Source: an uncultured Poribacteria bacterium
GTDB lineage: Bacteria; Poribacteria; WGA-4E; WGA-3G
Length of the DNA: 64,000 nucleotides
Assembly: GCA_958296135.2 (NCBI GenBank)
Contig: CATQHZ020000001.1
Coordinates: forward strand, 2,112,001 to 2,176,000
Direction: 5' to 3'
Numbering within the stretch: position 1 is the stretch's first letter; each line of letters starts with the position of its first letter. The notes beneath the pieces were generated by a model that made no database searches, was not told the DNA's origin, and saw nothing but the letters and a program-made list of their open reading frames with translations. This document shows, piece by piece, positions 35,067 through 57,869 of this stretch. Both the position numbers and the translations under genes were made by a program.

Positions 35067-35141
<75 letters not shown>

Positions 35142-40835: not shown

Positions 40836-41414
40836 TCAAACTCGCGGCAACTCAAAAAGTTCCGCAACTTGACAAACAAACCCTTCCACAACATCCTCCC
40901 CGGTGAGGGTATCGGCGCGCGTAAGCAGTGTGATGTCGGTTTCAGAACGATAGACGAGCACTGTTTTTGAGCCCGGTTCGATTACCCACACAAGCCGCGT
41001 TCCTGCCTCCAAATAGGCAAATGCTTTCTCAGCCACCTTCCGGAAAGTCTCCGACAGAGAAATCACCTCAACAGCAAGGTCTGGCGGAACTGGGAACGCC
41101 TTTATCAGGTCTGCAGGTAACCGTGGTGTTGAAACAAACGCGACATCCGGTTTTAGCACGCGCTCGCCCACTTGAAAGCCCGTTTCCGCGCAAACCACTT
41201 CACCCAGTTGATTCGCAATGACATAATTGCCGAGACGTATAAAGACTCGAGAACCAACTAGCCCGTGTTCCGCCGAGGGAGCCGCCATAGGTATCAATTT
41301 TCCTTTAACGTATTCGTATCCATCCACATCGCTCACAAGGAATTCATCCAACGTCATCGTGACATTTTCGGGGAGGATTCCTTCTGGCACGAACGGGTGA
41401 GTCTGTAGATTCAT
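40836..41414 (-). CDS. Uma2 (DUF820) family endonuclease
   Basis: E.V.G, PDVAF, PDLAVEVIS, Y..AG..LVWVI.P. Confidence 0.9.
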   Translation of the reverse strand: MNLQTHPFVPEGILPENVTMTLDEFLVSDVDGYEYVKGKLIPMAAPSAEHGLVGSRVFIRLGNYVIANQLGEVVCAETGFQVGERVLKPDVAFVSTPRLPADLIKAFPVPPDLAVEVISLSETFRKVAEKAFAYLEAGTRLVWVIEPGSKTVLVYRSETDITLLTRADTLTGEDVVEGFVCQVAELFELPRV

Positions 41415-41627
41415 TCTCTTATTCCTCCGGTGCTGTTTGTTGCATTTACCCGCTGTCTTCAATTAAAAGTATAACATATCGCAACCGAAATTGCAACAAT
41501 GCAACAAATTGATAGAAAAATATTGACATCACAGACTGAATTGGTGTATCATAAACCAATGTAGGAGAGACCTCCCGGTCTCGATTTCTCCTCGGTGTAT
41601 CATAAACCAATGAAGGAGGTAGCACCT

Positions 41628-42773: not shown

Positions 42774-42785
42774 GGTTACACCTCA

Positions 42786-43130
42786 AAAATCGCACGATAC
42801 CGTAGGGTGGGGGCCTGTCCCCCGCCATGCATGCAAAAGCCCTTTCTTTATCGCTCACCAAACGCACGCCAAAAAAAACGCACGATACCGTAGGGCGGGG
42901 GACAGGCCCCCGCTATGCATGCTAGAGCCCTTTTTTATCGCTCACCAAACGCACGCCAAAAAAAACGCACGATACCGTAGGGTGGGGGCCTGTCCCCCGC
43001 CATGCCTGTTAGCCCTTTTTCAACGCTCACCAAACGCACGACAAAAAAATCGCACGATACCGTAGGGTGGGGGCCTGTCCCCCGCCATGCCTGTTAGCCC
43101 TTTTTTTTAACGCTCACCAAACGCACGCCA
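42786..43130. repeat. Four tandem REP-containing units of about 85-90 bp
   Basis: cgcacgataccgtagggYgggg..tgtcccccgc...cgctcaccaaacgcacg repeated four times. Confidence 0.85.
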
Positions 43131-44126
43131 CAAATTTGTGGCAAGGGGAAGACTCTGAATACTTTCAATAATCCGATCCTCTCCATCATCTTCATCGCTA
43201 TTCGGCACGCGGTTGTGCTTGTCCATCCACGCGATGTTCTCTGCAACGCTTTCTGTCACAGGCGTTTGCGGGTCGAACTCAGGCAGAACCGCCGCCAACT
43301 TTGCGCCGCTGTAAATCTGCGTATGCCCGAAGTTGTCAAGCAGATGGATATACCGCTGCGTATCGATGCCGATGAGCGTATCTTGCGCTACATGCACGAA
43401 CTCTGCCGAAACACCGAGGACCGCCGCGGCCACTTCCTGCCACTCATCCCACGTGCGCGGCTGCGGGTGAACGAGGTTGTATATCTCGCCGAAGCACTCG
43501 GATTTGCCGAGCACCGCTGCAAACGCAACCCCCGCATCCCGCGATGCCAAAAATTGGAAATAGTTCGTCCCATCGCCCACAGAGATAATCGGTTTCGCTT
43601 TGCGGAGCCGGTCAATCCAGACCCCGCCGCATCCGAGCTGCCGATGTAGGGGTATCCCTGGCCCGTGCGTGTAGGACGGCTTGAAAATCGTCACGGGAAA
43701 CCCATCGCGTGCATGCGCTTCCAACAGCAGATTATCCGCCGCAATCTTGCCCAGTGCGTAATCCGAGGTGCCGTTCAACGGTGCTGTTTCCGGCAAATTT
43801 ATCCCATCAAAAGGCGGCCCGTATGTCATCACTGTTGAGCAGTGGACGAAGTGCCCGACGCGTCCCTGAAATGCCCGTATTGCGGAGGCAGTATCCTCAG
43901 CGTTGAAACTAATCATGTCGATGACAGCATCCCACTCTTCCGCGCCGACTTTGGCTTCAAAATGGACGCGCTGTCTCCTGTCTCCATAAATCACGCGCAT
44001 GTCTTCTGGCGGCACATCTACGTGCTGCCCGCGGTTAAACAGCACGACTTCATGGTTGCGCGCTTGCAACGCGGCGACAATACCGCGGCTAATGTTGCCG
44101 GTGCCGCCGATGACTAAGACTTTCAT
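43107..44126 (-). CDS. NAD-dependent epimerase/dehydratase
   Basis: VLVIGGTGNI, Y...K motif. Confidence 0.88.
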   Translation of the reverse strand: MKVLVIGGTGNISRGIVAALQARNHEVVLFNRGQHVDVPPEDMRVIYGDRRQRVHFEAKVGAEEWDAVIDMISFNAEDTASAIRAFQGRVGHFVHCSTVMTYGPPFDGINLPETAPLNGTSDYALGKIAADNLLLEAHARDGFPVTIFKPSYTHGPGIPLHRQLGCGGVWIDRLRKAKPIISVGDGTNYFQFLASRDAGVAFAAVLGKSECFGEIYNLVHPQPRTWDEWQEVAAAVLGVSAEFVHVAQDTLIGIDTQRYIHLLDNFGHTQIYSGAKLAAVLPEFDPQTPVTESVAENIAWMDKHNRVPNSDEDDGEDRIIESIQSLPLATNLWRAFGER

Positions 44127-45481
44127 TCGTTGTCTACCTCCTCGATTAACTTCACTTCGGAGTCCGTTAACCCATACAACGCGTAAACCAACGCGTCAAT
44201 CTTTTCCTCAAGGGCCGGGACTTCGCTGCTGTTCGGCTCGTCAAGGATTAACTGAACGTACTCCGCGAGGGCCGATTTCTGCTCCTCTGTCCGCTCCGCT
44301 ACCGGAAAACTCGGCAGTCGATATTCGTATCCCGGCTCGTAGAAATCGATCCAGTTCTTCGCACTCAGTGGTTTCTCATACGAGGATTGATATTGGGTTT
44401 GCGCATAGAAATGGAAAAGTTTGCCGTTCAAAATCGCCAGCAGCGAGAGGTCATCAGTCGGTATGTAACGACGACTCTTATTTAAGAGAAACGCCCCAGA
44501 TGCGTCATAGTAGGCCTGCATAGCAATCCCACCTCGATAGACAATTTTGGGATGCCGAAACTCAGGATACTCTGCACGCGCAGCAAGTTCCCAATAGAAT
44601 TCGCCTTGACGACTACGTGTTTTTAACTTATCACTATAGCCGTTGAGATGCTCGTGGATTGCCGGATATTCGTCCGCAAAAATATGCTCTGCTCCCGACT
44701 CGTTTCTGCCGGACCAGGGCCACTGTCTGAATTTGCCGCTTGGGATAAATATCAGATACTTCGGGGTCAGTTGCCACCTCTTTATCTGCGGCTTCCCAAT
44801 GGCACGTTTTATGAGCTCATCGCTTTTCGCATCCTCACCGATTAACTGCTCGCGTTTGGATTCGTCTATGACGAATGCCAAGTTGCATCCAGTTTCAATG
44901 TAATCACGGTTGAGCTCCAAAAGGTCTCCCAGTCGCGTTCCGGTATTATCAATCTTCGTCAACAACGCTTCAGACGGAACTTCCGCAATCGCTGGCGCGT
45001 TTCGTTTTGCAGGGAAGAAATCAGCCGGGATTTCATGGGCGGAGTCAATGTGGATGCGCGCCTGCTGCTCTCCCCACGAACGGATAGTCAACGCCGCACC
45101 TTCAAAGAAAGCAAACGCAAACGGACGAAAATGCTCATCAACACAGAGAAAACCGAAATCCACCGCGGTATAGCCTTGCCGCTGCAATCCTTCACTGACG
45201 TGAAACAGGAGCTTGGGATACCCTGCCTTCTCACGAAAGCGGATGAGGAACGGCAACCGAGTCCCGGAAGCGTCCCCAGCGCGAACGCGGAGCTCTTGGC
45301 ACTCAATGACCTGGGCGGCGACACCCCCTTCAAGCCGAAGATACGGTAACGGAAAGGGCCGTGCAATTTGCTCCAGCGTGGCACCTTCCGGAATAGGCAA
45401 CCCCAGTTTTTCGTCTAAAAACTGCATCAACGATGCCGCATCGCCGATGCCCTGAATATCGTCACGCGTAACGATACGCAT
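44123..45481 (-). CDS. Free-standing specificity module E (NTD + TaqI-C-like TRD)
   Basis: MRIVTRDDIQ N-terminus; FYWEL, PKIVY, LLAILN and IDALVYALYGLT motifs; no MTase motifs. Confidence 0.75.
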   Translation of the reverse strand: MRIVTRDDIQGIGDAASLMQFLDEKLGLPIPEGATLEQIARPFPLPYLRLEGGVAAQVIECQELRVRAGDASGTRLPFLIRFREKAGYPKLLFHVSEGLQRQGYTAVDFGFLCVDEHFRPFAFAFFEGAALTIRSWGEQQARIHIDSAHEIPADFFPAKRNAPAIAEVPSEALLTKIDNTGTRLGDLLELNRDYIETGCNLAFVIDESKREQLIGEDAKSDELIKRAIGKPQIKRWQLTPKYLIFIPSGKFRQWPWSGRNESGAEHIFADEYPAIHEHLNGYSDKLKTRSRQGEFYWELAARAEYPEFRHPKIVYRGGIAMQAYYDASGAFLLNKSRRYIPTDDLSLLAILNGKLFHFYAQTQYQSSYEKPLSAKNWIDFYEPGYEYRLPSFPVAERTEEQKSALAEYVQLILDEPNSSEVPALEEKIDALVYALYGLTDSEVKLIEEVDNE

Positions 45482-45684
45482 TTAGCAATGTCCTCCTATC
45501 GTTTTCGGGATTCGGTGCAGCATGGGAACGCACGCTCTTTTCTTTGAAGAATAGACGCATTCGTTGAAGCCGAGGGACCGCGAGGGACAGGCCCTCGCGC
45601 TACGAGCCAAAGTACACGCTGCCCCTCTCCGAAGGGCGAGGGCCCGGCGATCGCGAATCGCCGAGGGTTCCCCTCGCCATGCTG

Positions 45685-47043
45685 CTACCGATGTTCTTCA
45701 ATTAATGCGCGTTCCGCCGCCGTTAGCCGATACAGCGCGTAAACCAACGCGTCGATCTCTTCCTCAAGGGCCGGGACTTCGCGACTGTCGGGTTCGTCAA
45801 GGATCGACTGAACGTACTCCGCGAGGGCCGATTTCTGCGCCTCTGTCCGCTCTGCTACCGGGAAGACTTCCATGATGCTTTTCTTGAAATCCAATCGACT
45901 CCCACTTGATGAGAGACACTCAGATCTCGCCCACCAACTAAACAGTTTGCTGTTCAAAACGGCGAGCAGCGAAAGGTCTGTTGTAGGGATGAAAAATGCC
46001 GGCGTTAAGACAAGCGCGTCCGACTCTTCATAACACGCCCGCATCGAATTGCCCCGGCTATACGGATAGATAATTTTGGGGTACTCTAGCAAAGCATAAC
46101 GCCTGCTTGAAGGGAACTCCCAATAGAATTCTCCCTGTTGCGTGCGCTCCTTCAAAGCGTCTCGGTAGCCGTTTAGATAACCACTAACCGCGGGATAAGT
46201 TATAGCAAAGATGCTCTCCGCTTCTACATCGTTAAGCGCATCAGTCCAAGGCCATCGCGTGTTTAGACTGCTTGGGATAAATATCAGATGCTTTGGCTCC
46301 GCTCTCCATTTTTTTCGCGAAGGTATGTCAACCATCGGCTTTATGATGTCCGCGCTGCTAGGATGTTCGTTTAACAACCTCTCATAAGTGGACACGTCCT
46401 CTATAACGAAGGCTTGGCGGTATCCGGTGTGAACACCACTGTAAATGTTCCCATGATGCCTCAAGAGCGTTCCCACCTCCGGCAGTTTGGCTAACAAACT
46501 CTCGCGCGTAGGACTCGGATCCGGTCGTACCGGCGGCTCAAAAACGAACTCAGGAGGAAGTTCATGTTCATAAGAGACGTGGATAGTCGTATTCTCCTGA
46601 GGCCATGAAAAAATAGTCAGCTCCGCGTTCTGCCAGTCATCCTCCGCCGAATCGTTGAAGTAGGCAAACGCGAACGGTTGGAGATGCTCATCTGTACAGA
46701 TAAACCGGAAAGGGGCAGAGCCTCCGGCATTCCGCTCAAGGGCCGGACAGATGGCGCGAAGTGCAGATTCGTAGCCCTGATTGGTGTTAAATCGCACCAA
46801 GAAGAGGATCCACGGTTCAGGATTTTCCGAAGTATCTCCAGGGAAAATCTGGAGTTTCTGGCAATCCAAAAAATGATCTGCGACAGGTCCTCTCAGCCCA
46901 AGGTCCCTTGGTCTAAACCGTGGACCTGTATCTTCAAGGGTTTCACCTTCCGGGATAGGCAACCCCAGTTTTTCACGCAAAAACTGCATCAACGATGCCG
47001 CATCGCTGATACCCTGAATATCATCACGCGTAACGATACGCAT
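45685..47043 (-). CDS. Free-standing specificity module D
   Basis: Same architecture, divergent TRD; own promoter-like TTGCAG-17-TAGACT at 47149-47121. Confidence 0.75.
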   Translation of the reverse strand: MRIVTRDDIQGISDAASLMQFLREKLGLPIPEGETLEDTGPRFRPRDLGLRGPVADHFLDCQKLQIFPGDTSENPEPWILFLVRFNTNQGYESALRAICPALERNAGGSAPFRFICTDEHLQPFAFAYFNDSAEDDWQNAELTIFSWPQENTTIHVSYEHELPPEFVFEPPVRPDPSPTRESLLAKLPEVGTLLRHHGNIYSGVHTGYRQAFVIEDVSTYERLLNEHPSSADIIKPMVDIPSRKKWRAEPKHLIFIPSSLNTRWPWTDALNDVEAESIFAITYPAVSGYLNGYRDALKERTQQGEFYWEFPSSRRYALLEYPKIIYPYSRGNSMRACYEESDALVLTPAFFIPTTDLSLLAVLNSKLFSWWARSECLSSSGSRLDFKKSIMEVFPVAERTEAQKSALAEYVQSILDEPDSREVPALEEEIDALVYALYRLTAAERALIEEHR

Positions 47044-47318
47044 TTAGCAATGTCCTCCTATCGTTTTCGGGATTCGGTGCAGCATGGGGAGGATATAAGC
47101 AACATCCATTCTGACGTTAGAGTCTACCATATCTCCCCCAAAACTGCAACCGATTTTCTTTCGATTAACAGAATGAATGCGTCTTCCGTTTGGAAACGAC
47201 ACATCGTCGGAAACTAACGTCTCTTCAGGTCTGCTAGGACCTGCATGTATAAAGAAAAACGTGTTGGCCCCTCTCAAGGTCTGCTAGGACCTAAATAGAT
47301 GTTTCCAGCGACGCTCGG

Positions 47319-48824
47319 CTACCGATGTTCTTCAATTAACGCGCGTTCAGCCTCCGTTAGCCGATACAGCGCGTAAACCAACGCGTCAATCTCTTCCTCA
47401 AGGGCCGGGACTTCGCGACTGTCGGGTTCGTCAAGGATTAACTGAACGTACGCCGCAAGGGCCGCTTTCTGCGCCTCTGTCCGCTCCGCTACCGGAAAAC
47501 TCAACAGTTGAGATTTTTGTCCCGGCAGGTAGAAACTGATCCAACTCTTCGCACTCAGTGGTTTCCTAAACGAGGATTGATATCGGGCTTGCGCATAGAA
47601 ATGGAAAAGTTTGCCGTTCAAAATCGCCAGCAGCGAGAGGTCGTCAGTCGGTATGAAATAACAACTATTCTGTAAGATAAACGCCCCAGATGTGTCATAG
47701 TAGGCCTGAATAGCAATCCCACCTCGATAGACAATTTTGGGATGCCGAAACTCAGGATACTCTGCACGCGCAGCAAGTTCCCAATAGAATTCGCCTTGAC
47801 GACTACGTGTCTTTAACTTATCACTATAGCCGTTGAGATGCTCGTGGATTGCCGGATATTCGTCCGCAAAAATCTGCTCTGCTTCCGACTCGTTTCTGCC
47901 GGACCAGGGCCACTGTCTGAATTTGCCGCTTGGGATAAATATCAGATACTTCGGGGTCAGTTGCCACCTCTTTATCTGCGGCCTCCCAATGGCACGTTTT
48001 ATGAGCTCATCGCTTTTCGCATCTTCACCGATTAACTGCTCGCGTTTGGATTCGTCTATGACGAATGCCAAGTTGCATCCAGTTTCAACGTAACCACGGT
48101 TGAGCTCCCAACGGTCTCCCAGTGGCGGTCCGGTATTATCAATCTTCGCCAACAATGCATCAGACGAAGGTGAAACGACTCTCGCCAGCCCTGTCTCCTC
48201 CTGCACGGGAAGTTCCGGCACATTCAACGGAACTTCCGCATAGGAAACGACAGCGCGATCTTCAGGATCCGGCAGGTCATCCGGTCGCTCGTTGACCCCA
48301 GGCGTTACAGGTGGATCATCCGGTCCCGGAGACGGAGCGGGGAAGAAGACATCCGGTAATACATGCTCCGCACCAGTGTGAACGACCGTCTTCGCCTCTG
48401 TCCACGAAAAGACGGTTAATTCCGCGTTCTGCCAGTCACCTCCCGCCGAATCACTGAAATAGGCGAACGCGAACGGTTGATAATTCTCTCCCATACAGAT
48501 AAAACCGAAATCTGCAAGATTGCGGCCGCGCAACCTTGGTGCACCGCTCACAAGACGCAAGACTTCCGAACAGTCCTCTTCACTGCGAAATCGGATGAGG
48601 AAGATGCCGGAAGGTTCACCGGAAGCACCGCTGATTTCCTGGCAACTCAGAATCTCGCGAGCGATGTCTCCGCTGAGTCCCAGCGAATAGGGTGAAAAAT
48701 CTGCGACAATCTCTCCAAGGCCTAAACCTTCCGGAATAGGCAACCCCAGTTTTTCGTCTAAAAACTGCATCAACGATGCCGCATCGCCGATGCTTTGAAT
48801 ATCATCACGCGTAACGATACGCAT
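47319..48824 (-). CDS. Free-standing specificity module C (mosaic of B and E)
   Basis: N-domain near-identical to B, TRD near-identical to E. Confidence 0.75.
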   Translation of the reverse strand: MRIVTRDDIQSIGDAASLMQFLDEKLGLPIPEGLGLGEIVADFSPYSLGLSGDIAREILSCQEISGASGEPSGIFLIRFRSEEDCSEVLRLVSGAPRLRGRNLADFGFICMGENYQPFAFAYFSDSAGGDWQNAELTVFSWTEAKTVVHTGAEHVLPDVFFPAPSPGPDDPPVTPGVNERPDDLPDPEDRAVVSYAEVPLNVPELPVQEETGLARVVSPSSDALLAKIDNTGPPLGDRWELNRGYVETGCNLAFVIDESKREQLIGEDAKSDELIKRAIGRPQIKRWQLTPKYLIFIPSGKFRQWPWSGRNESEAEQIFADEYPAIHEHLNGYSDKLKTRSRQGEFYWELAARAEYPEFRHPKIVYRGGIAIQAYYDTSGAFILQNSCYFIPTDDLSLLAILNGKLFHFYAQARYQSSFRKPLSAKSWISFYLPGQKSQLLSFPVAERTEAQKAALAAYVQLILDEPDSREVPALEEEIDALVYALYRLTEAERALIEEHR

Positions 48825-49156
48825 TTAGCAATGTTCTCCTATCGTTTTCGGGATTCGGTGCAGCATGGGAACGCACGCGCTTCTCTTTGAAGAATAGACG
48901 CATTCGTTGAAGCCGAGGGACCGCGAGGGACAAGCCCTCGCGCTACGGCCCAAAGCACACGCCGCCCCTCTCCGTAGGGCGAGGGCCGTCACGGTCACGC
49001 CTACAGCAAACGTGCGTGTGTCGCCTCGCGAAAGCACGGTCACGTCTACAGAAAATGTGCGTGTGTCGCCCCGCGTAAACACGCTACCTTACTTACTTTA
49101 ACGTTGTCCTCTCTGCCGCCTCGCTGCAGAGATGTCCACTGCCCCTCGCCATGCTG

Positions 49157-50605
49157 CTACCGATGTTCTTCAATTAACGCGCGTTCAGCCTCCGTTAGCC
49201 GATACAGCGCGTAAACCAACGCGTCGATCTCTTCCTCAAGGGCCGGGACTTCGCTGCTGTTCGGCTCGTCAAGGATCAACTGAACGTACCCCGCAAGGGC
49301 CGCTTTCTGCTCCTCTGTCCGCTCCGCTACCGGGAAGACTTCTATGTCGCTTTTCTTGAACTTCAACAGGGTTTCACCGGGGGCACGACACTCGGATTGC
49401 GCCCACCAATGAAAAAGTTTGCTGTTCAAAATCGCGAGCAGAGAGAGATCTGTCGTGGGTATGGAAAATGTGCCGAGGAAGCGAAGCGCATCCCCTTCTA
49501 CATAACACGCCCGCATTGAACTACCATCCGGATAGATAATTCTAGGGCGGTTATCAGGACTCTGGTCATCTACCGAGAGTTCCCAATAGAATTCACCTCG
49601 GTGAAATGCAGAACGGTTTTTTAATTTATCCCTATAACGGTTCAGGTGATTGCTGATTGCGGGATAGGTTTCCGCAAAAATTCGCTCCGCGGCCGCTTCA
49701 TCTGTCGTAACTGACCAGGGCCACTGTTTGTGCCGACCGTTCGGGATCCATATCAGATACGCCCGCTGCGGCCCCCATTTTTTCTTTTTGGGAACGCGAA
49801 CCAACGGCCTCATGAGTTGGGCACTGGCAGGGTCTTCCGCGATTAACTGTTCGCGTTTGAATTCCTCAATAACGAACGCGCGGTTGAGCCTAGTGACAAT
49901 GTTGCCGCTCAAAATGGTCCATTGCTGACCCAACGGTAACCCGCCCTTTTTCAGTTTGGCTAACAAACTCTCGCGAGAATACGAAACGACTTTCAGTTTG
50001 GCTAACAAACTCTCGCGAGAATACGAAACGACAGCGAGATCTTCAGGATCCGGCGGGTCATCCGGTCGCTCGTTGACCCCAGGCGTTACAGGTGGATCAT
50101 CCGGTCCCGGAGACGGAGCGGGGAAGAAGACATCCGGTAATACATGCTCCGCACTAGTGTGAACGACCGTCTTCGCCTCTGTCCACGAAAAGACGGTTAA
50201 TTCCGCGTTCTGCCAGTCACCTCCCACCGAATCACTGAAATAGGCGAACGCGAACGGTTGATAATTCTCTCCCATACAGATAAAACCGAAATCTGCAAGA
50301 TTGCGGCCGCGCAACCTTGGTGCACCGCTCACAAGACGCAAGACTTCCGAACAGTCCTCTTTACTGCGAAATCGGATGAGGAAGATGCTGGAAGGTTCAC
50401 CAGAAGCACCGCTGATTTCCTGGCAACTCATAATCTTGCGGGCGATGTCTCCGCTGAGTCCCAGCGAATAGGGTGAAAAATCTGCGACAATCTCTCCAAG
50501 GCCTAAACCTTCCGGAATAGGCAACCCCAGTTTTTCGTCTAAAAACTGCATCAACGATGCCGCATCGCCGATGCCCTGAATATCGTCACGCGTAACGATA
50601 CGCAT
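49157..50605 (-). CDS. Free-standing specificity module B
   Basis: Same architecture; 42-bp tandem duplication at 49949-50032. Confidence 0.75.
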   Translation of the reverse strand: MRIVTRDDIQGIGDAASLMQFLDEKLGLPIPEGLGLGEIVADFSPYSLGLSGDIARKIMSCQEISGASGEPSSIFLIRFRSKEDCSEVLRLVSGAPRLRGRNLADFGFICMGENYQPFAFAYFSDSVGGDWQNAELTVFSWTEAKTVVHTSAEHVLPDVFFPAPSPGPDDPPVTPGVNERPDDPPDPEDLAVVSYSRESLLAKLKVVSYSRESLLAKLKKGGLPLGQQWTILSGNIVTRLNRAFVIEEFKREQLIAEDPASAQLMRPLVRVPKKKKWGPQRAYLIWIPNGRHKQWPWSVTTDEAAAERIFAETYPAISNHLNRYRDKLKNRSAFHRGEFYWELSVDDQSPDNRPRIIYPDGSSMRACYVEGDALRFLGTFSIPTTDLSLLAILNSKLFHWWAQSECRAPGETLLKFKKSDIEVFPVAERTEEQKAALAGYVQLILDEPNSSEVPALEEEIDALVYALYRLTEAERALIEEHR

Positions 50606-50810
50606 TTAGCAATGTCCTCCTATCGTTTTCGGGATTCGGTGCAGCATGGGAACGCACGCGCTTTTCTTTGAAGAATAGACGCATTCGTTGAAGCCGAGGG
50701 ACCGCGAGGGACAGGCCCTCGCGCTACGGGCCAAAGCACACGCCGCCCCTCTCCGAAGGGCGAGGGGCCGGCGAGCGCGAATCGCCGAGGGTTCCCCCCT
50801 CGCCATGCTG

Positions 50811-53800
50811 CTACCGATTTTCTTCGATTAACTCGCGCTCAGCCTCCGTTAACCCATACAACGCGTAAACCAACGCGTCGATCTCCTCCTCAAGGGCCGG
50901 GACTTCGTGGCTGTCGGGTTCGTCAAGGATTAACTGAACGTACTCTGCAAGGGCCGCTTTCTGCTCCTCTGTCCGCTCCGCTATGCGAACGTTCTGCATG
51001 TTCGCCTTCGTGAAATACAGAATGGATTTCCCGGGTGCCTTGCATTCGGTTCGCGCGTACCAACCGAAAAGTTTGCTGTTTAAAATCGCCAGCAGGGACA
51101 GATCTTCTGTCGGTATGAAGTGGATGGAACCTAAAGCAAATGCCCCTGTGGTGTCATAGCATGCCCGCAGAGAGCCGCCACTAAGCGGGTAGACAATCTT
51201 GGACGGTTGAAACGCCGGAGATTTGTCACGCCCCCCAAATTCCCAAAAGAATTCTCCGTTATGAGCAGCGTCCGGGTCCCTTAAAATGTCCCTATAGTTG
51301 CTGAGGTGTGCATGGATTGCCGGAAAGGTCTTGGCAAAAATCCGCTCTGCCTCGGCTTCATCTCTCGCCTTGGTCCAAAACCACTGTTTGTGCCGGCTGT
51401 TTGGAATGTAGATTAGTGATGCCGCTTCCGCTCTCCATTTGGTTCGACGAGGTATACGAATTAGCGACTTTAGGAGCTGAGCACTTTCAGGATCGGCATC
51501 AATCAACTCCCCACGTTTTGATGCGTCTATAACGTAAGCCCGATCGCATCCGGTTACAACCCCGCCGAAAATGTTACAATGCCGACTCAACGGTGCTCCG
51601 ACATTTTTCAACTTGGCCAACAAGGCCTCACGCGAAGTCGGCTCAACCCGATGAGGTGATGGCGGAACAGGAATAGGCTTCGGTTCCGGACCGTCAGAAC
51701 CTTCCCGAAAAAAGAGACGCGCCAAATCGTGTTCATAGGCTGTGTGGATAGAGGTGTTTTCCTCCGTCCACGAACAGATAGTCAACTCCGCGGACTGCAA
51801 GCCTTCGGATGCCGAATCGCTGAAGTAAGCAATAGCGAACGGTTGGAAATCCTCACCCGCGCAGATAAAGCGGCAATCGGCCAACTCGTAACCCTGCTGT
51901 TGCAGTCCATCACTGACCTGGCGCAGGACTCCCGGATAACCCGCTTTACTATTAAACCGGACGAGGAAAGGTTTTTGGTTTGCTGAGGTACCCCCAGGAC
52001 GAACCCTGATTTCATAGCAATCTTTAACCTGTTCTGCGACAGAATCGCCCAGGCCAAGGAAAACTAAAGGCAATGGAAGTGCAATCCGTTCAAAAACTGC
52101 ATCTTCCCGGATAGGCAACCCCAGTTTTTCGTCTAAAAATTGCATCAACGATGCCGCATCGCCGATGCCCTGAATATCGTCACGGGTAATGATACGCATA
52201 GGCATATCCTCCTTTTCTGGCGGCAATTCGCCGGGTTCGGGTAACGGTATGCCAGCATCGCAATACGTTTTCTTGATTAACGCAATCTCGGTATCCGTTA
52301 ACCCATAGACTTCGTAGACTAACTCATCGATAGCATGCTCAAGTGCAGGCACCGCATCTCCTGCAGGATCGGCGAGGATCCGCGCAACCCAGCGCGTGAG
52401 TTGTGCCCGCTGCTCCGAGGTCATCTCCGCGATTGGGAAACGTTTCATGTAGAGCGCGATAAAGCGTAAACTGCCACCCGCCCACGCATCGTTGAAGCTC
52501 TGAAACTTGTAGCGAGCATACCAATCAAACAGTGTGCTATTCAAAATCGCAAGCAAGGATAAGTCTGTCGTCGGTATGAAGTAGGCAGTGGCAACACTAA
52601 TCGTTTGCGCCGTGTCATAACTGGCGTATAGAGATTGCGCCGTTTCGGGCCAGACGATTTTCGGCTTTTCAAACTCAGCTCGATAACTGCACGAACGCAA
52701 TTCCCAATAAAATTTACCGCGAGCAGTCCGGCGAATCAGTTCCTCGCGATAGCGTTTCAGATGCTGGTAAACCGCCGGATAGCACTCCGCAAAGATTCGC
52801 TCCGCCTCTGTGTCATTTTCGGCATTCGACCAGGGCCAATCCGCGTTTGTGCTGCTTGCAATCGCTATCAGATACTCGTTTGACTCTTTCGCGTCCCACT
52901 TCCGGGTATAACGTCCCCGCAGCAGTGGCTTTATGAATGCACTGCTCTGGGGGGAATCAGCGATGAGTTGTTTGCGCGTGGAAGAATCTATCACGAACGC
53001 AGGGTCGTATCCGGTGACAAGCCCGCGGTAAATATCGCCGTTGACATACTCTTCCAACAGTGTCCCGGTATCTTGAAGTTTTTCAAGCAGCGCGAATGTC
53101 TCAGGGGCAGCCAAAATCCACGCGTCAGGAGAGAGTTGGGAAATCTGCATCGGGAACACCTGTTCTTGAAACGCCTCCCTGATGTCAAATTTCTTGGCGT
53201 TTTCTCTTAAAGTTGCCGCGGAGAAGAGCTGATCTGGGCTGGGACAACGATTTTCAGCGAGGACGATGCACGTGTCAACTGCCGCCTCAAAAACGGAGAT
53301 GCTCCCAAAATCCAAAAGGTTCTTCAGTGACATTTCTGTGGCAAGAAACTGGCGTAGGTTTTCGCCATAGGCCGCCCGGAAAAACTTATTGGTGCAGATA
53401 TAGGTCAAGATGCCATCGGGCTTCAGTAGCTCGGCTGCGCGTTTGTAGAAATAGACGCTAATATCCGCAGGCCTAAAGAAGAAGTCGCCAAAATAGGATT
53501 GCAATGCCGGTGCGAGATTGACTACCATCTCATGCCGGTAATCAACATACGGCGGATTGCCGATGACGATGTCAAACCCATCCTTCACACCGAACATCTC
53601 CTCCGCATCGAAGAAATCCGCGCTGGCGTTCCTGTCGTAGGGATTCCACTGCGCGATTTTCGTTGCTTCGTCAACGACACCGGTTCGCGCCTCCAGAGCC
53701 CATTCCGTAGACAATTCGGTCAGCGCGTTGACTAATTCGCCCCGGCATGCCTCTTCTTCGTTCATCAGCGAGAGTTTCATCTGCCGGGTGTTCGCGCTGA

Positions 53801-55856
53801 AGTAGTTCTCGCGAATCTTTGAAATTTGCTGGCGTTTCTGCTCAATCACGTCTGTCTCAAGGAGCATTTGGAAATCGGGTTTCTTGAGCCCGATGAGCGT
53901 ATCGGCGGCGACGAATCGGATCTCCAAGTTCGGCAGCGGTTGGATACCGTAGTTGTCGTCAGCGTTATCGTTCGGCACCTGCTCAATGATAAGCGAGATG
54001 AAAAAGCGCAGTTTAGCAATCGTCACGGCGATGGGTTGGATGTCTACCCCGTAGATGCTCTTTTGAATGAGGTAGAGTTTCCGTCCGTAGTTGTTATGCC
54101 GATTTTCTTCGGCGAAAGCCTTCTCAATCGCCGCAATCGCCAAGTTCCGGACGATAGCATCCGGAATCAGATATGCCTGCTGAATTTGGTACTGTTTCCA
54201 CCGTTTGTTCCGCCGGTCAAGTTTTTTGAGGATAAGCACCAATTTGTTCAGAATGCCCATCGGGAAGGCACCTGAGCCGACGGCCGGGTCGAGCAGCTTG
54301 AGCTCGTCTATCGCTTGGATGAGTTGCGTTACCTCACTTTCGCGGATGAGGTGTTCGGTCTGCGAATCCGCTTCCCCCTCTGCTTCATAAGCGAGCAAAT
54401 CGTCGCGGAGGCGTTCTTCCAGAAAGTCCCTATTTCCATCAAACGGTTCGACCTTCTGCAGGAAATAGGCGATGAGTGCCTCGTCTACCATGTAGTCAAC
54501 AATCTGGCGCGGTGTGTAGTAAGAGCCGGTGGATTTCCGCGCGCTGGATTGCGTTTCAGGGTTGTAGTCGCCGAGCAGGTTCTCAAACACGCGCCCGAGG
54601 AGTTCGGGTTCAAGCGCGACTTCCTGTTCAATCGGCGTGTTTTCCTCCACGGTAAACTTATAGCGCGAAAAGAGCGGGAAGATACCTTTTCCATCCTGAA
54701 AAAAGAGTTTGTCCGGCACGTGCAGTTTCTGCCGCTCGTTTTCGTTATCGGTGAAGCAATCGATGCGTCCGCCGCCGTCGCGCGTCGCCTCAAACGTATC
54801 AAGGCAGTCAAACAGCCCGCCGTTGACAAATGGCACCTGCTTGAGTTTTTCGAGAAATGCATCGGGTTCGTGCAACAGATCGGCGTAGCGATATTTGCTT
54901 GCGTCTCGATGGTTTCGGTTATCCGCAGTGCTGAAGGCGCGTTCGGTTATCGGCGTATTCAGCGTCGCGAAGAAAAGGTTTTGCAGGATGGCCTTGTAGT
55001 ATGTGTCATCAGGGGACGCTTCAACAAAGAGCTCGACAGGGATCAGGCCTTTCTCCTTCAGAAACCAGATGAAGAGCAGTCGGGTAATCAAGCGGATGAC
55101 CTGGGGTTCAGTCTCGCCATCTGGGAAACGGCATTCCGATTTTGCCCACTCATACCACTCAAACAGTTCTCGATAAAACTTGCGGTTGAGGGTTTCGGTG
55201 TTGAGCACACCTTCCCACGCGTTGTGTAGCGTATCAAAATTGCGAACGTCCTCGGTCTCAATGAGAGCCTCCAGATGCAATTCGGCAAGAATATCCAGAT
55301 GCGCGCGGTGCGGGTTGCGCAACTTGATGTCCTTGATGAGCGTCACTTTTTCCAGCACCTGTTTCGTCGCGTCGCGTTTGTGCCATCGGCGGTTGATAAT
55401 CGCCAGCGTCAGGACATCGCCGTATCGGAACATCACCAGAATCGGCACTACGAAGCGGCCGTTGACAAAGCGGGTGATATTGGCAAGCTGTGTGCGCGTA
55501 TAGTTCTCCCCACTGAGTTGCATAGCGACGAAGATATAGGAGAGCCTCAGATTTTCGTCAAACTTCGCGGTTTCAAACAGCATTTCCTGCTGATTGATCT
55601 CGCTGTCGGTAATCTGGAAGATGAGGTGGAATTTCTCCCAATCGTCAACACAGAGTTTATCGGCGGCATCGGCAGGTGCTTGCGTGCGGCGCGCCGCCGC
55701 GGCCTCCCGGAGGGTGCCGAACAGCTGCTCATCTAAACCCTTGTTCCCGGTTCTATCGCTGTGGTAACCGAGGGCGTTGAGGAAGCGCGTGGCAGCCTCG
55801 CGCAGCGGCGTTTCCGCGAAGGAGCTTATACAGTTTTGGATATCGGTTCTGTTCAT
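50811..55856 (-). CDS. Type IIG/Eco57I-like N6-adenine methyltransferase with TRD and fused extra module A
   Basis: NGGLF, GSYYTP, DPAVGSGAF (motif I), GNPPY (motif IV), TaqI-C-like TRD, then MRIITRDDIQ module from 52199. Confidence 0.88.
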   Translation of the reverse strand: MNRTDIQNCISSFAETPLREAATRFLNALGYHSDRTGNKGLDEQLFGTLREAAAARRTQAPADAADKLCVDDWEKFHLIFQITDSEINQQEMLFETAKFDENLRLSYIFVAMQLSGENYTRTQLANITRFVNGRFVVPILVMFRYGDVLTLAIINRRWHKRDATKQVLEKVTLIKDIKLRNPHRAHLDILAELHLEALIETEDVRNFDTLHNAWEGVLNTETLNRKFYRELFEWYEWAKSECRFPDGETEPQVIRLITRLLFIWFLKEKGLIPVELFVEASPDDTYYKAILQNLFFATLNTPITERAFSTADNRNHRDASKYRYADLLHEPDAFLEKLKQVPFVNGGLFDCLDTFEATRDGGGRIDCFTDNENERQKLHVPDKLFFQDGKGIFPLFSRYKFTVEENTPIEQEVALEPELLGRVFENLLGDYNPETQSSARKSTGSYYTPRQIVDYMVDEALIAYFLQKVEPFDGNRDFLEERLRDDLLAYEAEGEADSQTEHLIRESEVTQLIQAIDELKLLDPAVGSGAFPMGILNKLVLILKKLDRRNKRWKQYQIQQAYLIPDAIVRNLAIAAIEKAFAEENRHNNYGRKLYLIQKSIYGVDIQPIAVTIAKLRFFISLIIEQVPNDNADDNYGIQPLPNLEIRFVAADTLIGLKKPDFQMLLETDVIEQKRQQISKIRENYFSANTRQMKLSLMNEEEACRGELVNALTELSTEWALEARTGVVDEATKIAQWNPYDRNASADFFDAEEMFGVKDGFDIVIGNPPYVDYRHEMVVNLAPALQSYFGDFFFRPADISVYFYKRAAELLKPDGILTYICTNKFFRAAYGENLRQFLATEMSLKNLLDFGSISVFEAAVDTCIVLAENRCPSPDQLFSAATLRENAKKFDIREAFQEQVFPMQISQLSPDAWILAAPETFALLEKLQDTGTLLEEYVNGDIYRGLVTGYDPAFVIDSSTRKQLIADSPQSSAFIKPLLRGRYTRKWDAKESNEYLIAIASSTNADWPWSNAENDTEAERIFAECYPAVYQHLKRYREELIRRTARGKFYWELRSCSYRAEFEKPKIVWPETAQSLYASYDTAQTISVATAYFIPTTDLSLLAILNSTLFDWYARYKFQSFNDAWAGGSLRFIALYMKRFPIAEMTSEQRAQLTRWVARILADPAGDAVPALEHAIDELVYEVYGLTDTEIALIKKTYCDAGIPLPEPGELPPEKEDMPMRIITRDDIQGIGDAASLMQFLDEKLGLPIREDAVFERIALPLPLVFLGLGDSVAEQVKDCYEIRVRPGGTSANQKPFLVRFNSKAGYPGVLRQVSDGLQQQGYELADCRFICAGEDFQPFAIAYFSDSASEGLQSAELTICSWTEENTSIHTAYEHDLARLFFREGSDGPEPKPIPVPPSPHRVEPTSREALLAKLKNVGAPLSRHCNIFGGVVTGCDRAYVIDASKRGELIDADPESAQLLKSLIRIPRRTKWRAEAASLIYIPNSRHKQWFWTKARDEAEAERIFAKTFPAIHAHLSNYRDILRDPDAAHNGEFFWEFGGRDKSPAFQPSKIVYPLSGGSLRACYDTTGAFALGSIHFIPTEDLSLLAILNSKLFGWYARTECKAPGKSILYFTKANMQNVRIAERTEEQKAALAEYVQLILDEPDSHEVPALEEEIDALVYALYGLTEAERELIEENR

Positions 55857-56155: not shown

Positions 56156-56545
56156 TTATGCCTCTTGCGATTCTTCCTGTTCAAGCCGCTTGAACCATGA
56201 GCTGATCTGGCGAGGCGTCGCATTGGGGACCGCCGCTTGCATCTTTTTGAGAATCTCCCGCTTGGACATCCCCGGTGTCTTCGCTAGGAAGACGGTTCGA
56301 GCTTTCGCATACAAGACCGGATCGACTTTTCTGCGGCCGACACGGGTGCGGAAGTTCCGCGGTCCTTCGTAGTTCAGCGCGTCAAGGGCAGCGTTCCACT
56401 CGTCGGTTTTGATCCAACGGTATAAGGTGCGTGAGGAAACGCCGATGGCGAGGGCGATCGCATCGGCGTTCCTATTACCGCCAGCGAAGATGTCCACCGC
56501 GGTCTTCATTTTTTTCTTTCTTACATCGCTTGGTAGTGCAGGCAT
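56156..56545 (-). CDS. Helix-turn-helix DNA-binding protein
   Basis: IALAIGVSSRTLYRWIK; second HTH-like segment near the C-terminus. Confidence 0.65.
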   Translation of the reverse strand: MPALPSDVRKKKMKTAVDIFAGGNRNADAIALAIGVSSRTLYRWIKTDEWNAALDALNYEGPRNFRTRVGRRKVDPVLYAKARTVFLAKTPGMSKREILKKMQAAVPNATPRQISSWFKRLEQEESQEA

Positions 56546-56555
56546 TTCTCTCTTT

Positions 56556-56638
56556 CCTATCTTTTTTGAAATAGGCCTATCTTTTTTGAAATAGGCCTAT
56601 CTTTTTTGAAATAGGCCTATCTTTTTTGAAATAGGCCT
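56556..56638. repeat. Four perfect tandem 20-bp units cctatcttttttgaaatagg
   Basis: Directly visible; each unit is bounded by the inverted pentamer cctat/atagg. Confidence 0.9.
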
Positions 56639-56774: not shown

Positions 56775-57869
56775 TTAGTCTATTATCGTCACAACACGTT
56801 TATTTGTCAAGAAAAAATCGGTTTGCGGATGCTCAGCATCAACAATGGCGCGTGCCAATGCCCAATCTAACCGTCGGCGATATTGGCCATCGCGGCGTAA
56901 CCCCTTGAACGCTGTCAGAAAAACGTCGTGCGTTCTCTCGCGGATGGTGGTGAGACGTGCATTGAGATTCTCTACATCTACCTGCCACGGGACGCGGAGT
57001 TTCGTGATGGAACGTCCCTGATAACGGACAGGATACCCCGCTAACTCCGCCGGCGGACAAAAACAGATGGAGGCGCAAACCGTATTGTCTACGGCGACGA
57101 GCCCCACATTTCCCGTCGGTTCATTGAACACAATCTCGCGATTGCGCGAAGGCATCGGCAGGTGCGTGCGGAGCTCCGAGAGGGTTCCGAGGAACTGATT
57201 GTTGCGCCATATTCTCACTGAAGGGACGCGCGTGGAAAGCGTATTTACTGTCGGTGCAGGCCCGAACAGCGCGAGCCCAACTGGATGTTCGGTATCCGCA
57301 AACATAAACGTTTCCGGCGGCCGCGCTTTTTCCACATCCCCCGGGAGGCGCGCTTTGGCAGCGCGCGCCTGTATGTCCACCGGTTGCATTTGTGGAACTA
57401 ATGAGACAAAATCGTGCAACCGGTGCAGGAACAGCCTACTCCGAATGAACGCCTCTGGGATAATCGCCGCTACCCACTTACAATTTGCCAAGCACTTCTC
57501 CAACGCGTATTTGTAAAGATCATCGTGTTGGATATCGCGTGGAAACGGCAGTCCCCGGCGCGTCGCGGAGTTGCGCGCCAGCCACGGCGGGTTTGTAATG
57601 CACACCTCAAACCCTCTCGGAAAATCAGCGAGTGTATCGCGTCGCCGGACCTCGGCGGCGGCGGGCTCAATGTCAAAAAGGGCCCACTCTCGGCACTGCA
57701 ACCGCGCTTCACTTAGCAGCCGTGGAATGCTGTTATCACCGGCGAAAGGTTCCAACGCGTGCTGCTGGTTTAAGTTGAGTGCCGCTGCCCACGCGCGGAA
57801 GGGTTTCAACTGAAACGGATTTCCGCGGGTGTAGTAGCGGCCCGTTGCACGTTTTTCCTCTATATGCAT
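56775..57869 (-). CDS. Amino-methyltransferase-like protein
   Basis: GRYYT, LEPFAG (motif I-like), ITNPPW (motif IV-like). Confidence 0.65.
   Translation of the reverse strand: MHIEEKRATGRYYTRGNPFQLKPFRAWAAALNLNQQHALEPFAGDNSIPRLLSEARLQCREWALFDIEPAAAEVRRRDTLADFPRGFEVCITNPPWLARNSATRRGLPFPRDIQHDDLYKYALEKCLANCKWVAAIIPEAFIRSRLFLHRLHDFVSLVPQMQPVDIQARAAKARLPGDVEKARPPETFMFADTEHPVGLALFGPAPTVNTLSTRVPSVRIWRNNQFLGTLSELRTHLPMPSRNREIVFNEPTGNVGLVAVDNTVCASICFCPPAELAGYPVRYQGRSITKLRVPWQVDVENLNARLTTIRERTHDVFLTAFKGLRRDGQYRRRLDWALARAIVDAEHPQTDFFLTNKRVVTIID

Follow-up and report, generated by a model that had tools for sequence, protein, structure and literature searches.

The five-module array and its Type IIG gene

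The locus described here lies in a window of 64,000 nucleotides (nt) from an uncultured Poribacteria bacterium (assembly GCA_958296135.2, contig CATQHZ020000001.1, positions 2,112,001 to 2,176,000), to which all coordinates below refer. On the minus strand, between 44.1 and 55.9 kb, this sponge-symbiont genome encodes five paralogous units that consist of an N-terminal domain (NTD), a linker and a target recognition domain (TRD). One of them, module A, is fused to a Type IIG-like restriction-modification (R-M) enzyme, and the other four, modules B to E, are free-standing genes that follow it in tandem. Module C is a recombinant of a B-type and an E-type copy. The enzyme gene and the five modules are arranged as follows:

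50811..55856, minus strand: Eco57I-family Type IIG-like R-M gene, 1681 aa, recognized by Pfam, PADLOC and motifs; order of parts: N-terminal region, methylase core, own TRD (TRD0), linker, fused module A
52269..53108, minus strand: TRD0, the enzyme's own TaqI_C-type TRD, approximately residues 917-1196
50811..52199, minus strand: module A (NTD and TRD), fused in frame to the enzyme from M1220
49157..50605, minus strand: module B, 482 aa; parental combination, NTD and TRD both grouping with L009_a (a module of the related locus L009) and P0012
47319..48824, minus strand: module C, 501 aa; recombinant
45685..47043, minus strand: module D, 452 aa; relatives of 64-79% identity in other metagenome assemblies
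44123..45481, minus strand: module E, 452 aa; parental combination, NTD and TRD both grouping with L009_b (the second module of L009)

The 1681-aa open reading frame (ORF) matched the Pfam families Eco57I (E 1.3e-33, 117 bits, cut-off 25.3) and TaqI_C (E 3.3e-18, 66.5 bits, cut-off 26.5, in two stretches) as well as the PADLOC profile REase_MTase_IIG (E 6.7e-112), and DPAVGSGAF and NPPY are readable in its translation. These features place the gene in the Eco57I family of Type IIG enzymes, with a predicted gamma-class N6-adenine methylase core and a TaqI_C-type TRD in the same chain. No Pfam family was found in its residues 1-400, and the N-terminal residues kept in 116 homologs (W72, F75, Q80, D83, E85, and others) form no clear D..ExK motif. 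TRD0 is 45% identical to the TRD of module D (tblastn; BLASTP over residues 917-1196, E 2e-65). A short linker leads from TRD0 to the start of module A (MRIITRDD, residue 1220), whose internal ATG is preceded at 8 nt by AGGAGG, and an ortholog with the same fusion (1684 aa) is present in L009.

Modules B to E share a common build, with an NTD of about 170 aa, a proline-rich linker of variable length, a TRD of about 275 aa and a helical tail. Each has its own AGGAGG or AGGAGA 8-9 nt before the ATG, located after a leader of about 45 nt that is common to all four.

Module C joins parts of two other copies

Examination of the sequence alone (hereafter the sequence-only reading) had proposed that C shares a near-identical N-terminal domain with B and a near-identical TRD with E. 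Sliding identity along an alignment of the five units, together with pairwise global alignments, bore this out in both parts. The stretch 50766..50021 of B corresponds to 48985..48240 of C over 746 nt without gaps (97.5% identity), comprising a 161-nt leader (156/161 identical) and codons 1-195, while 48166..47329 of C corresponds to 44976..44139 of E over 838 ungapped nt (92.1%). In windows of 60 nt the second tract is 96-100% identical over its first 480 nt or so and 78-93% nearer the 3' end; outside the shared tracts the same pairs are about 40-70% identical in windows of this size. Likeness at the module ends is more general, since B and E match at 97.9% over 291 nt (leader and first ~100 nt) and the last ~170 nt are 87-98% alike across all five copies.

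Separate maximum-likelihood trees were built for the NTD (162 columns) and the TRD core (215 columns) of 27 modules, namely A to E, the two L009 modules and the 20 top relatives out of 102 protein matches. In the NTD tree, C is sister to B (support 100/99) in a clade with L009_a and P0012, and in the TRD tree it is sister to E (99/95) in a clade with L009_b. The incongruence that had been predicted was thus found, and it was supported by approximately unbiased (AU) tests in which each data set rejected the grouping of the other: the NTD data reject C+E (p 1.9e-45) and the TRD data reject B+C (p 3.3e-48). Both groupings were those of the sequence-only reading and had been fixed before the trees. 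As B falls with L009_a and E with L009_b in both trees, B and E are old combinations and C is the recombinant, a true one, of a B-type and an E-type copy.

It had also been suggested that the two domains are exchanged as units. The conflicting trees and the family-wide reassortment described below agree with this, but the unit that moved in C is wider than the bare domains, as leader, NTD and proximal linker were joined to distal linker and TRD.

The junction in the linker

The features of the linker region that bear on the origin of C are the following:

48240..48241, minus strand: switch point in C (..GTCGTTTCCTAT / GCGGAAGTTCCGT..), where identity with B stops and identity with E starts
48167..48229, minus strand: 63-nt linker stretch in C, absent from E, containing a 10-bp inverted repeat
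49949-49990 / 49991-50032, minus strand: exact 42-bp tandem duplication in the linker of B, VVSYSRESLLAKLK encoded twice
46483..46506, minus strand: 24-nt core in D, encoding RESLLAKL, identical to both B copies

Microhomology between the parents does not exceed 1-3 nt at the switch point, which sits in the non-conserved linker, about 20 codons upstream of the ..ALLAKI motif of C itself. The B-derived part of C ends with VVSY, encoded by the opening 12 nt of the 42-nt unit of the B duplication, and the E-derived part opens in E-type linker (AEVP..). The 63-nt stretch of C is found in neither parent and resembles the long linker of L009_b. Module C carries two linkers in tandem, which makes it the longest of the modules.

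Based on the duplication and on its shared core, a recombination footprint at the boundary of NTD and TRD had been proposed. Both repeats exist as described: the duplication in B is exact (period 42, 2.0 copies, 100% matches) and the CAGTTTGGCTAACAAACTCTCGCG core is present in D at 46483-46506, where it constitutes the longest exact match between B and D outside the homogenised head and tail (next longest, 18 nt). The footprint itself was not established, as the switch in C is located neither at the 24-nt core nor at the RE(S/A)LLAK(L/I) motif; what remains in favour of it is that the B-derived part of C ends inside the unit duplicated in B, with the 63-nt indel relative to E adjoining. With the B duplication, the C junction and the E indel all falling within about 100 nt, the linker is a local hot spot of rearrangement. 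When DNA folding was compared with shuffled sequences, the 42-nt unit was not unusual (z -1.05), and the duplicated stretch (z -3.4) and the C linker (z -3.1) exceeded the shuffles, a result that does not show a mechanism.

Support from read data

Four sequencing runs (X1 to X4) of one sample in one study, none of them recorded as RNA, contain 85-87% of the sampled words of the region, and their short contigs cover 30 of its 30 bins. In each run the segments that C shares with B or E reached 1.6-1.9 times the contig depth of the unique segments: 236.8 and 201.7 vs 122-129 in X1, 168 vs 91-96 in X2, 71 vs 35-48 in X3 and 91 vs 51-58 in X4. A nearly doubled depth is expected if the B-type NTD and the E-type TRD are each present twice. 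Module C also has differences of its own, at 14 of 585 coding nt relative to B and at 66 sites of the TRD tract relative to E; these private substitutions, as well as the 63 nt present in neither parent, are unexpected in a chimera of B and E reads. Concerning alternative junctions, 0 of the 12 contig joints listed fall at a module head, a module tail or an NTD/TRD boundary, all being located in intergenic repeats, and an exact search of a metagenome contig collection with a 35-nt sequence across the C junction gave no match.

Age, selection and concerted evolution

Synonymous divergence (dS) in the tract shared by B and C is 0.037 over 195 codons, with a ratio of non-synonymous to synonymous divergence (dN/dS) of 0.54, and it is close to 0.03 over codons 1-200 of the tract shared by C and E. 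The equally low values suggest that both parts of C arose in one duplicative event, or in two close in time. Codons 151-200 of the C/E tract contain 15 non-synonymous and 1 synonymous differences (dN/dS 4.6), which hints at divergence of the reader domain after the duplication, the numbers being small and not significant alone by a rough binomial test. Over codons 201-278 of this tract dS rises to 0.19-0.39, pointing to different histories of the tails of C and E. Polarising the differences between C and E by L009_b assigned 8 derived changes to C and 18 to E and left 20 undecided, with no clear direction. Between the orthologs B and L009_a, and E and L009_b, dN/dS ranges from 0.17 to 0.58 in every part, indicating that both domains are under purifying selection.

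The ends of the modules have followed another course than their bodies. In the comparison of B with D, head (codons 1-33) and tail have dS values of 0.27 and 0.18 vs 1.38 and 1.36 for the bodies of NTD and TRD, and the heads of B and E show zero synonymous differences. Tails are 81-93% identical among the modules of the window vs 56-67% between orthologs of two genomes, whereas NTD bodies behave in the opposite way (B vs L009_a, 79%; B vs D, 42%). Protein constraint alone is insufficient to explain the low dS of heads and tails together with the identity of the tails within a genome, and homogenisation at the DNA level is required: within-genome gene conversion maintains the likeness of all modules over their first ~100 nt and last ~170 nt.

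Reassortment of domain types across the family

For a view of the whole family, 113 distinct modules, 30 of them fused (including A) and 83 free-standing (including B to E), were typed by single-linkage clustering at 62% identity. The 10 NTD types and 21 TRD types obtained occur in 35 combinations; 7 of the 10 NTD types have more than one TRD partner type and 9 of the 21 TRD types have more than one NTD partner type. The fused modules by themselves display 11 combinations of 4 NTD and 4 TRD types. The combination found in C occurs once among the 113. Congruence was rejected by AU tests in three further cases (p 0.010, 5e-28 and 8e-5), in which the groups were picked after the trees had been seen. 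NTD and TRD types therefore reassort freely across the family, the fused position included. As to the recognition domain of the enzyme proper, TRD0 is 53-62% identical in most of the enzymes that have a methylase core of about 80% identity, and 87-88% identical in five.

Nature of the two domains

An AlphaFold2 model of module D was obtained (predicted local distance difference test score, pLDDT, 84.6; predicted template modelling score, pTM, 0.59). In Foldseek searches its TRD matched M.BseCI and CamA (E 3e-11), MmeI (3e-8), BpuSI (2e-4) and PglX (1e-3). Scores against Pfam PF12950 (TaqI_C) stay below the cut-off of 26.5 bits in B (18.7), C (21.9) and D (25.9), and E gave no match, while many family members in the database bear a precomputed PF12950 label. 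By modelled fold and by sequence kinship with the TRDs of gamma-class methylases and Type IIG enzymes, the module TRDs are classed as probable TaqI_C-type domains.

The NTD is 31-40% identical to the N-terminal domain of Poribacteria enzymes of about 1050 aa (tblastn; 30-sequence alignment), which are built of NTD, helical region, Eco57I methylase and TRD. This homology suggests that a module corresponds to such an enzyme without the methylase core. A search of the ESM Atlas with the NTD returned no score of 0.9 or higher, and comparison with the N-terminal 215 residues of the 1681-aa enzyme (116 homologs) gave an hhalign probability of 0.4%, i.e., no detectable kinship.

Variants of this build were observed elsewhere. 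Genome G106 contains, besides a module at the usual locus, eight dispersed ORFs of about 295 aa that start with the NTD and look like a multiplied truncated copy. The full-length enzymes with NTD, methylase and TRD often follow an ORF of about 190 aa that matches NTD profile positions 8-130 (for example G040:C1:4028435-4029506, and in G119, G047 and G038). In addition, one NTD and two TRDs are present in single ORFs of L013 (10001-12481, 826 aa) and of P0010 and P0011 (758-785 aa), so that a module can also grow by duplication of its TRD.

Distribution and genomic context

A search with the whole module gave 102 related proteins at E <= 0.001. Of the 46 loci with matches in the genome collection, 38 are named Poribacteria, and so are 11 of 11 loci with full-length matches. 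Among 121 sampled genomes of the phylum the NTD was detected in 47, including 43 of the 81 genomes of the family to which the window belongs and 3 of 19 of a second family. The genome of the window has five NTD matches, all at the array locus, and the other genomes sampled have at most two module-type matches per locus. The two edges of the variable locus are marked by these genes:

56775..57869, minus strand: small methyltransferase-like gene (GRYYT.., NPPW), upstream edge
43107..44126, minus strand: NAD-dependent epimerase gene, start overlapping the stop of E, conserved downstream edge

All 9 related loci inspected have the same epimerase gene directly after the module, and in 8 of the 9 a methyltransferase-like gene of about 330 aa lies upstream of the module. 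The latter is single-copy in 79 of the 81 genomes of the family, at 64-80% identity and whether or not a module is present, which suggests that it is a core gene marking a variable insertion site. In two of the loci scanned, an AAA_35 ATPase gene was observed between the methyltransferase-like gene and the module, once with a NERD/PD-(D/E)XK part.

The link to the enzyme was studied with the best 119 homologs listed for its residues 1-900. Of 32 that are at least 74% identical, 27 have the length expected of a fusion (1634-1813 aa), two are of 1274-1289 aa and three of 1395-1521 aa; the more distant homologs in this set are all of 1289 aa or less. The start of a module was recognized in 30 of the 31 proteins of at least 1390 aa. 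Several fused enzymes appear to share a contig with free-standing modules. The conserved fusion is the main reason to think that the modules work with the Type IIG enzyme.

Other features of the locus

Every module contains an imperfect 12-bp hairpin followed by a T run, at approximately +32 to +68 of the coding sequence and inside the homogenised head. Its outer pairs recur in some distant relatives, with no clear covariation in an 18-sequence alignment. These hairpins and a repeat located between two modules are listed here:

45424-45450, 46986-47012, 48767-48793, 50548-50574 and 52142-52168, minus strand: head hairpins of the five modules
48972..49156, minus strand: copy of a dispersed repeat of about 165-185 nt between B and C, outside the modules

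The dispersed repeat has 70 matches (538 first-look candidates) of 83-97% identity in its own 5.19-Mb genome, and summed contig depth runs into the thousands over the intergenic repeat bins (48972-49156, and also 45504-45837 and 50514-50847).

Upstream of the Type IIG gene there is a gene for a 129-aa helix-turn-helix protein (56156-56545), which is adjoined on its upstream side by a perfect 4.2-copy array of a 20-nt palindromic unit (56556-56638; CCTATCTTTTTTGAAATAGG); this could be an operator-like array for a controller protein. On the other flank, 2.7 kb downstream of the array of modules, a gene on the minus strand (40836-41462) encodes a Uma2-family "putative restriction endonuclease" (E 4e-30), and Uma2-like ORFs of about 195-200 aa, judged by similar starts alone, recur near the locus in related genomes. 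Between the epimerase and PhyH-like genes, positions 42785-43134 hold four tandem units of 87 nt (87% matches), each with one G+C-rich inverted repeat (GGCGGGGGACAGGCCCCCGC-like). An Rfam scan returned a tRNA at 35067-35141 and nothing else, and neither promoter-like sites (9 vs 10.1 in shuffles) nor terminator-like sites (18 vs 17.5) were in excess.

Probable accessory specificity units and alternative explanations

Considering the evidence as a whole, it is probable that the locus represents a tandem set of methylase-less NTD-TRD modules beside a Type IIG gene, that C is a recombinant within this set and that the modules are accessory specificity units. Module C received its leader, NTD and proximal linker from a B-type copy and its distal linker and TRD from an E-type copy. 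In the mechanism proposed, the homogenised heads and tails of the modules would serve as homology arms for exchange. A fused module would act in cis as an additional DNA-specificity unit of the Type IIG enzyme, separate modules would do so in trans, and duplication together with domain reassortment would widen or change the DNA sequences read by the system. The purifying selection and the conservation of the enzyme fusion suggest that the modules are functional, and their part as accessory specificity units is likewise predicted from sequence. A more specific and rather doubtful version of this proposal may be put forward tentatively, according to which the modules would be a hitherto undescribed class of methylase-less specificity subunits for Type IIG enzymes, one built in and up to four acting in trans, so that one catalytic chain would serve several motifs and new motifs would arise by duplication and re-pairing. 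If true, the "S subunit" logic of Type I systems would have been reinvented with TaqI_C-type readers.

Several observations weigh against the accessory-unit proposal. The breakpoint of C is almost without homology and was therefore not produced by homologous exchange at the conserved arms, and no bridging of the C junction was found among the contigs listed, which are short. At eight related loci, in as many genomes, the module stands alone, with no similar Type IIG gene in the 10 kb around it, a poor fit to an obligate partnership with an adjacent enzyme. Module TRDs and TRD0s are at most 51% identical (85 x 113 comparisons) and form separate pools, so that the modules may do something other than replace TRD0. 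Regarding the NTD, a model of this domain by itself (pLDDT 75.6) had no fold match in the PDB at E <= 0.001 (best 0.035), and no acidic residue is conserved in its strands in the 30-sequence alignment, for which reason the NTD is not called a nuclease.

A different use of the same structure would be programmed cassette switching, in which B to E are donors that recombine at head and tail into the fused module A and produce phase variation in single cells. Variable bodies between heads and tails homogenised at the nucleotide level are what such a system would look like, the fused site of enzymes with ~80% identical cores holds 4 NTD and 4 TRD types in 11 combinations, and behind a near-identical start (MRIITRDD..) the fused module is A-type in the window and B-type in the L009 ortholog. 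These differences at the fused site, however, are between genomes and over evolutionary time. Moreover, all modules are complete ORFs with their own ribosome-binding site (RBS) rather than truncated silent copies, all copies are direct with no inverted repeat within the array, a scan of the neighbouring ORFs (37.4-63.4 kb) detected no recombinase or integrase family, and none of the 12 joints listed is at a module boundary, the last being a weak point because contigs drop rare variants. Cassette switching is thus considered unlikely. It is distinctly unlikely that the modules are a neutral by-product, i.e., leftovers of duplicated Type IIG genes without methylase core that undergo ordinary repeat recombination. 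Tandem direct repeats do recombine by default, the junction of C is illegitimate, the linkers have duplications and indels, and the NTD has no recognisable catalytic motif, all of which this explanation would accommodate; on the other hand, the five ORFs are all intact, dN/dS between orthologs is 0.17-0.58, many genomes retain the family at one syntenic position and the enzyme fusion is conserved in 27 of the 32 close homologs.

The modules might also be partners of the small methyltransferase-like protein (56775-57869) instead of the Type IIG enzyme, forming a split methylase with a specificity subunit. In 18 of the 121 genomes a homolog of this gene is followed, at most 1.6 kb downstream, by an NTD match with which it shares contig and strand. 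The same neighbour is present at 8 of 9 loci inspected, and the protein has GRYYT and NPPW, its L010 copy matching Eco57I weakly (E 1.4e-4, below the Pfam cut-off). The gene is nevertheless single-copy in 79 of the 81 genomes of the family regardless of a module, which suggests that it works without modules as a housekeeping-like gene beside a variable insertion site, and the protein has no close similarity to the methylase cores of the full-length enzymes with an NTD (best BLASTP E 0.004); a partnership of this kind is very unlikely. Finally, C could be a chimeric assembly of B and E reads, as repeats as long as 746 and 838 nt could confuse assembly from short reads. The private differences of C from both copies, the 63 nt found in neither and the approximately twofold contig depth on the shared segments in four runs of one sample speak against this, and the genome, in 4 contigs of which one is of 5.0 Mb, suggests a long-read assembly. 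An artefact of assembly is accordingly extremely unlikely.

Relation to known systems and significance

The exchange of recognition domains is the main way in which R-M systems alter their specificity. Type I S subunits are a well-documented case, as are a few pathogen genes of Type IIG and Type III. Known Type IIG and IIL enzymes have one TRD after the methylase; the subfamily described here adds a methylase-less NTD-TRD unit in the chain and free-standing ones. To judge from the model of D, the module TRDs would have the same fold as those of MmeI (5hr4), BpuSI (3s1s) and the BREX protein PglX (8c45).

In the specificity genes of Helicobacter pylori Type I and Type IIG systems, recombination at flanking repeats is reported to move DNA-recognition domains, between which there are short tandem repeats of varying copy number (Furuta et al., 2011; PMC3077401). 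The Poribacteria array resembles this domain movement (DoMo), as set out in that text, in unit-wise exchange, conserved flanks, short repeats between domains and conflicting domain trees, and the combinatorial reassortment with conserved flanks was found here as 35 combinations and homogenised heads and tails. It differs in that H. pylori exchanges HsdS-type TRDs inside one S gene, compared between strains, whereas here TaqI_C-type TRDs and an unrelated NTD are exchanged among five tandem paralogs in one genome. The movement of TRDs between positions, which by the same text defines DoMo, was not found, TRD0 and module TRDs being at most 51% identical, and the breakpoint in C, almost homology-free, is not at a flanking repeat as in the cases described there.

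Phase-variable Type I hsdS shufflons occur in pneumococci and Bacteroides. In the example of Mycoplasma pulmonis, as summarized in PMC3077401, alternative specificity copies lie beside an R-M gene and have conserved exchange segments, as here. Inverted copies, site-specific recombination and incomplete silent genes belong to that description, whereas the modules are direct, complete and equipped with an RBS. The only inverted pair within 40-54 kb is at 42.9 kb, outside the array, and no recombinase family was seen in the neighbouring ORFs scanned. Homogenised ends, diverse centres and mosaic copies also recall the gene conversion of bacterial tandem paralogs and silent-cassette systems such as pilE/pilS (mentioned in PMC3077401). 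No sign was seen here of silent donors feeding an expression locus or of variation within the population, to judge from contigs of four runs of one sample, which do not display rare variants.

The process, reassortment of TRDs, is hence a known one, and its architecture and setting appear to be new. Literature searches, with supplements outside their reach, found the papers on domain movement in H. pylori and returned neither NTD-TRD modules nor arrays of this kind in Poribacteria. The same reassortment has thus been caught in an uncultivated phylum of sponge symbionts and in a different architecture, in the form of a recent recombinant, module C, with both parents still present. Should the modules indeed steer the enzyme, the locus would represent a natural Type IIG system of multiple specificities, from which portable DNA-reading modules could be drawn; otherwise it would stand as a clean case of concerted evolution and domain reassortment in tandem paralogs.

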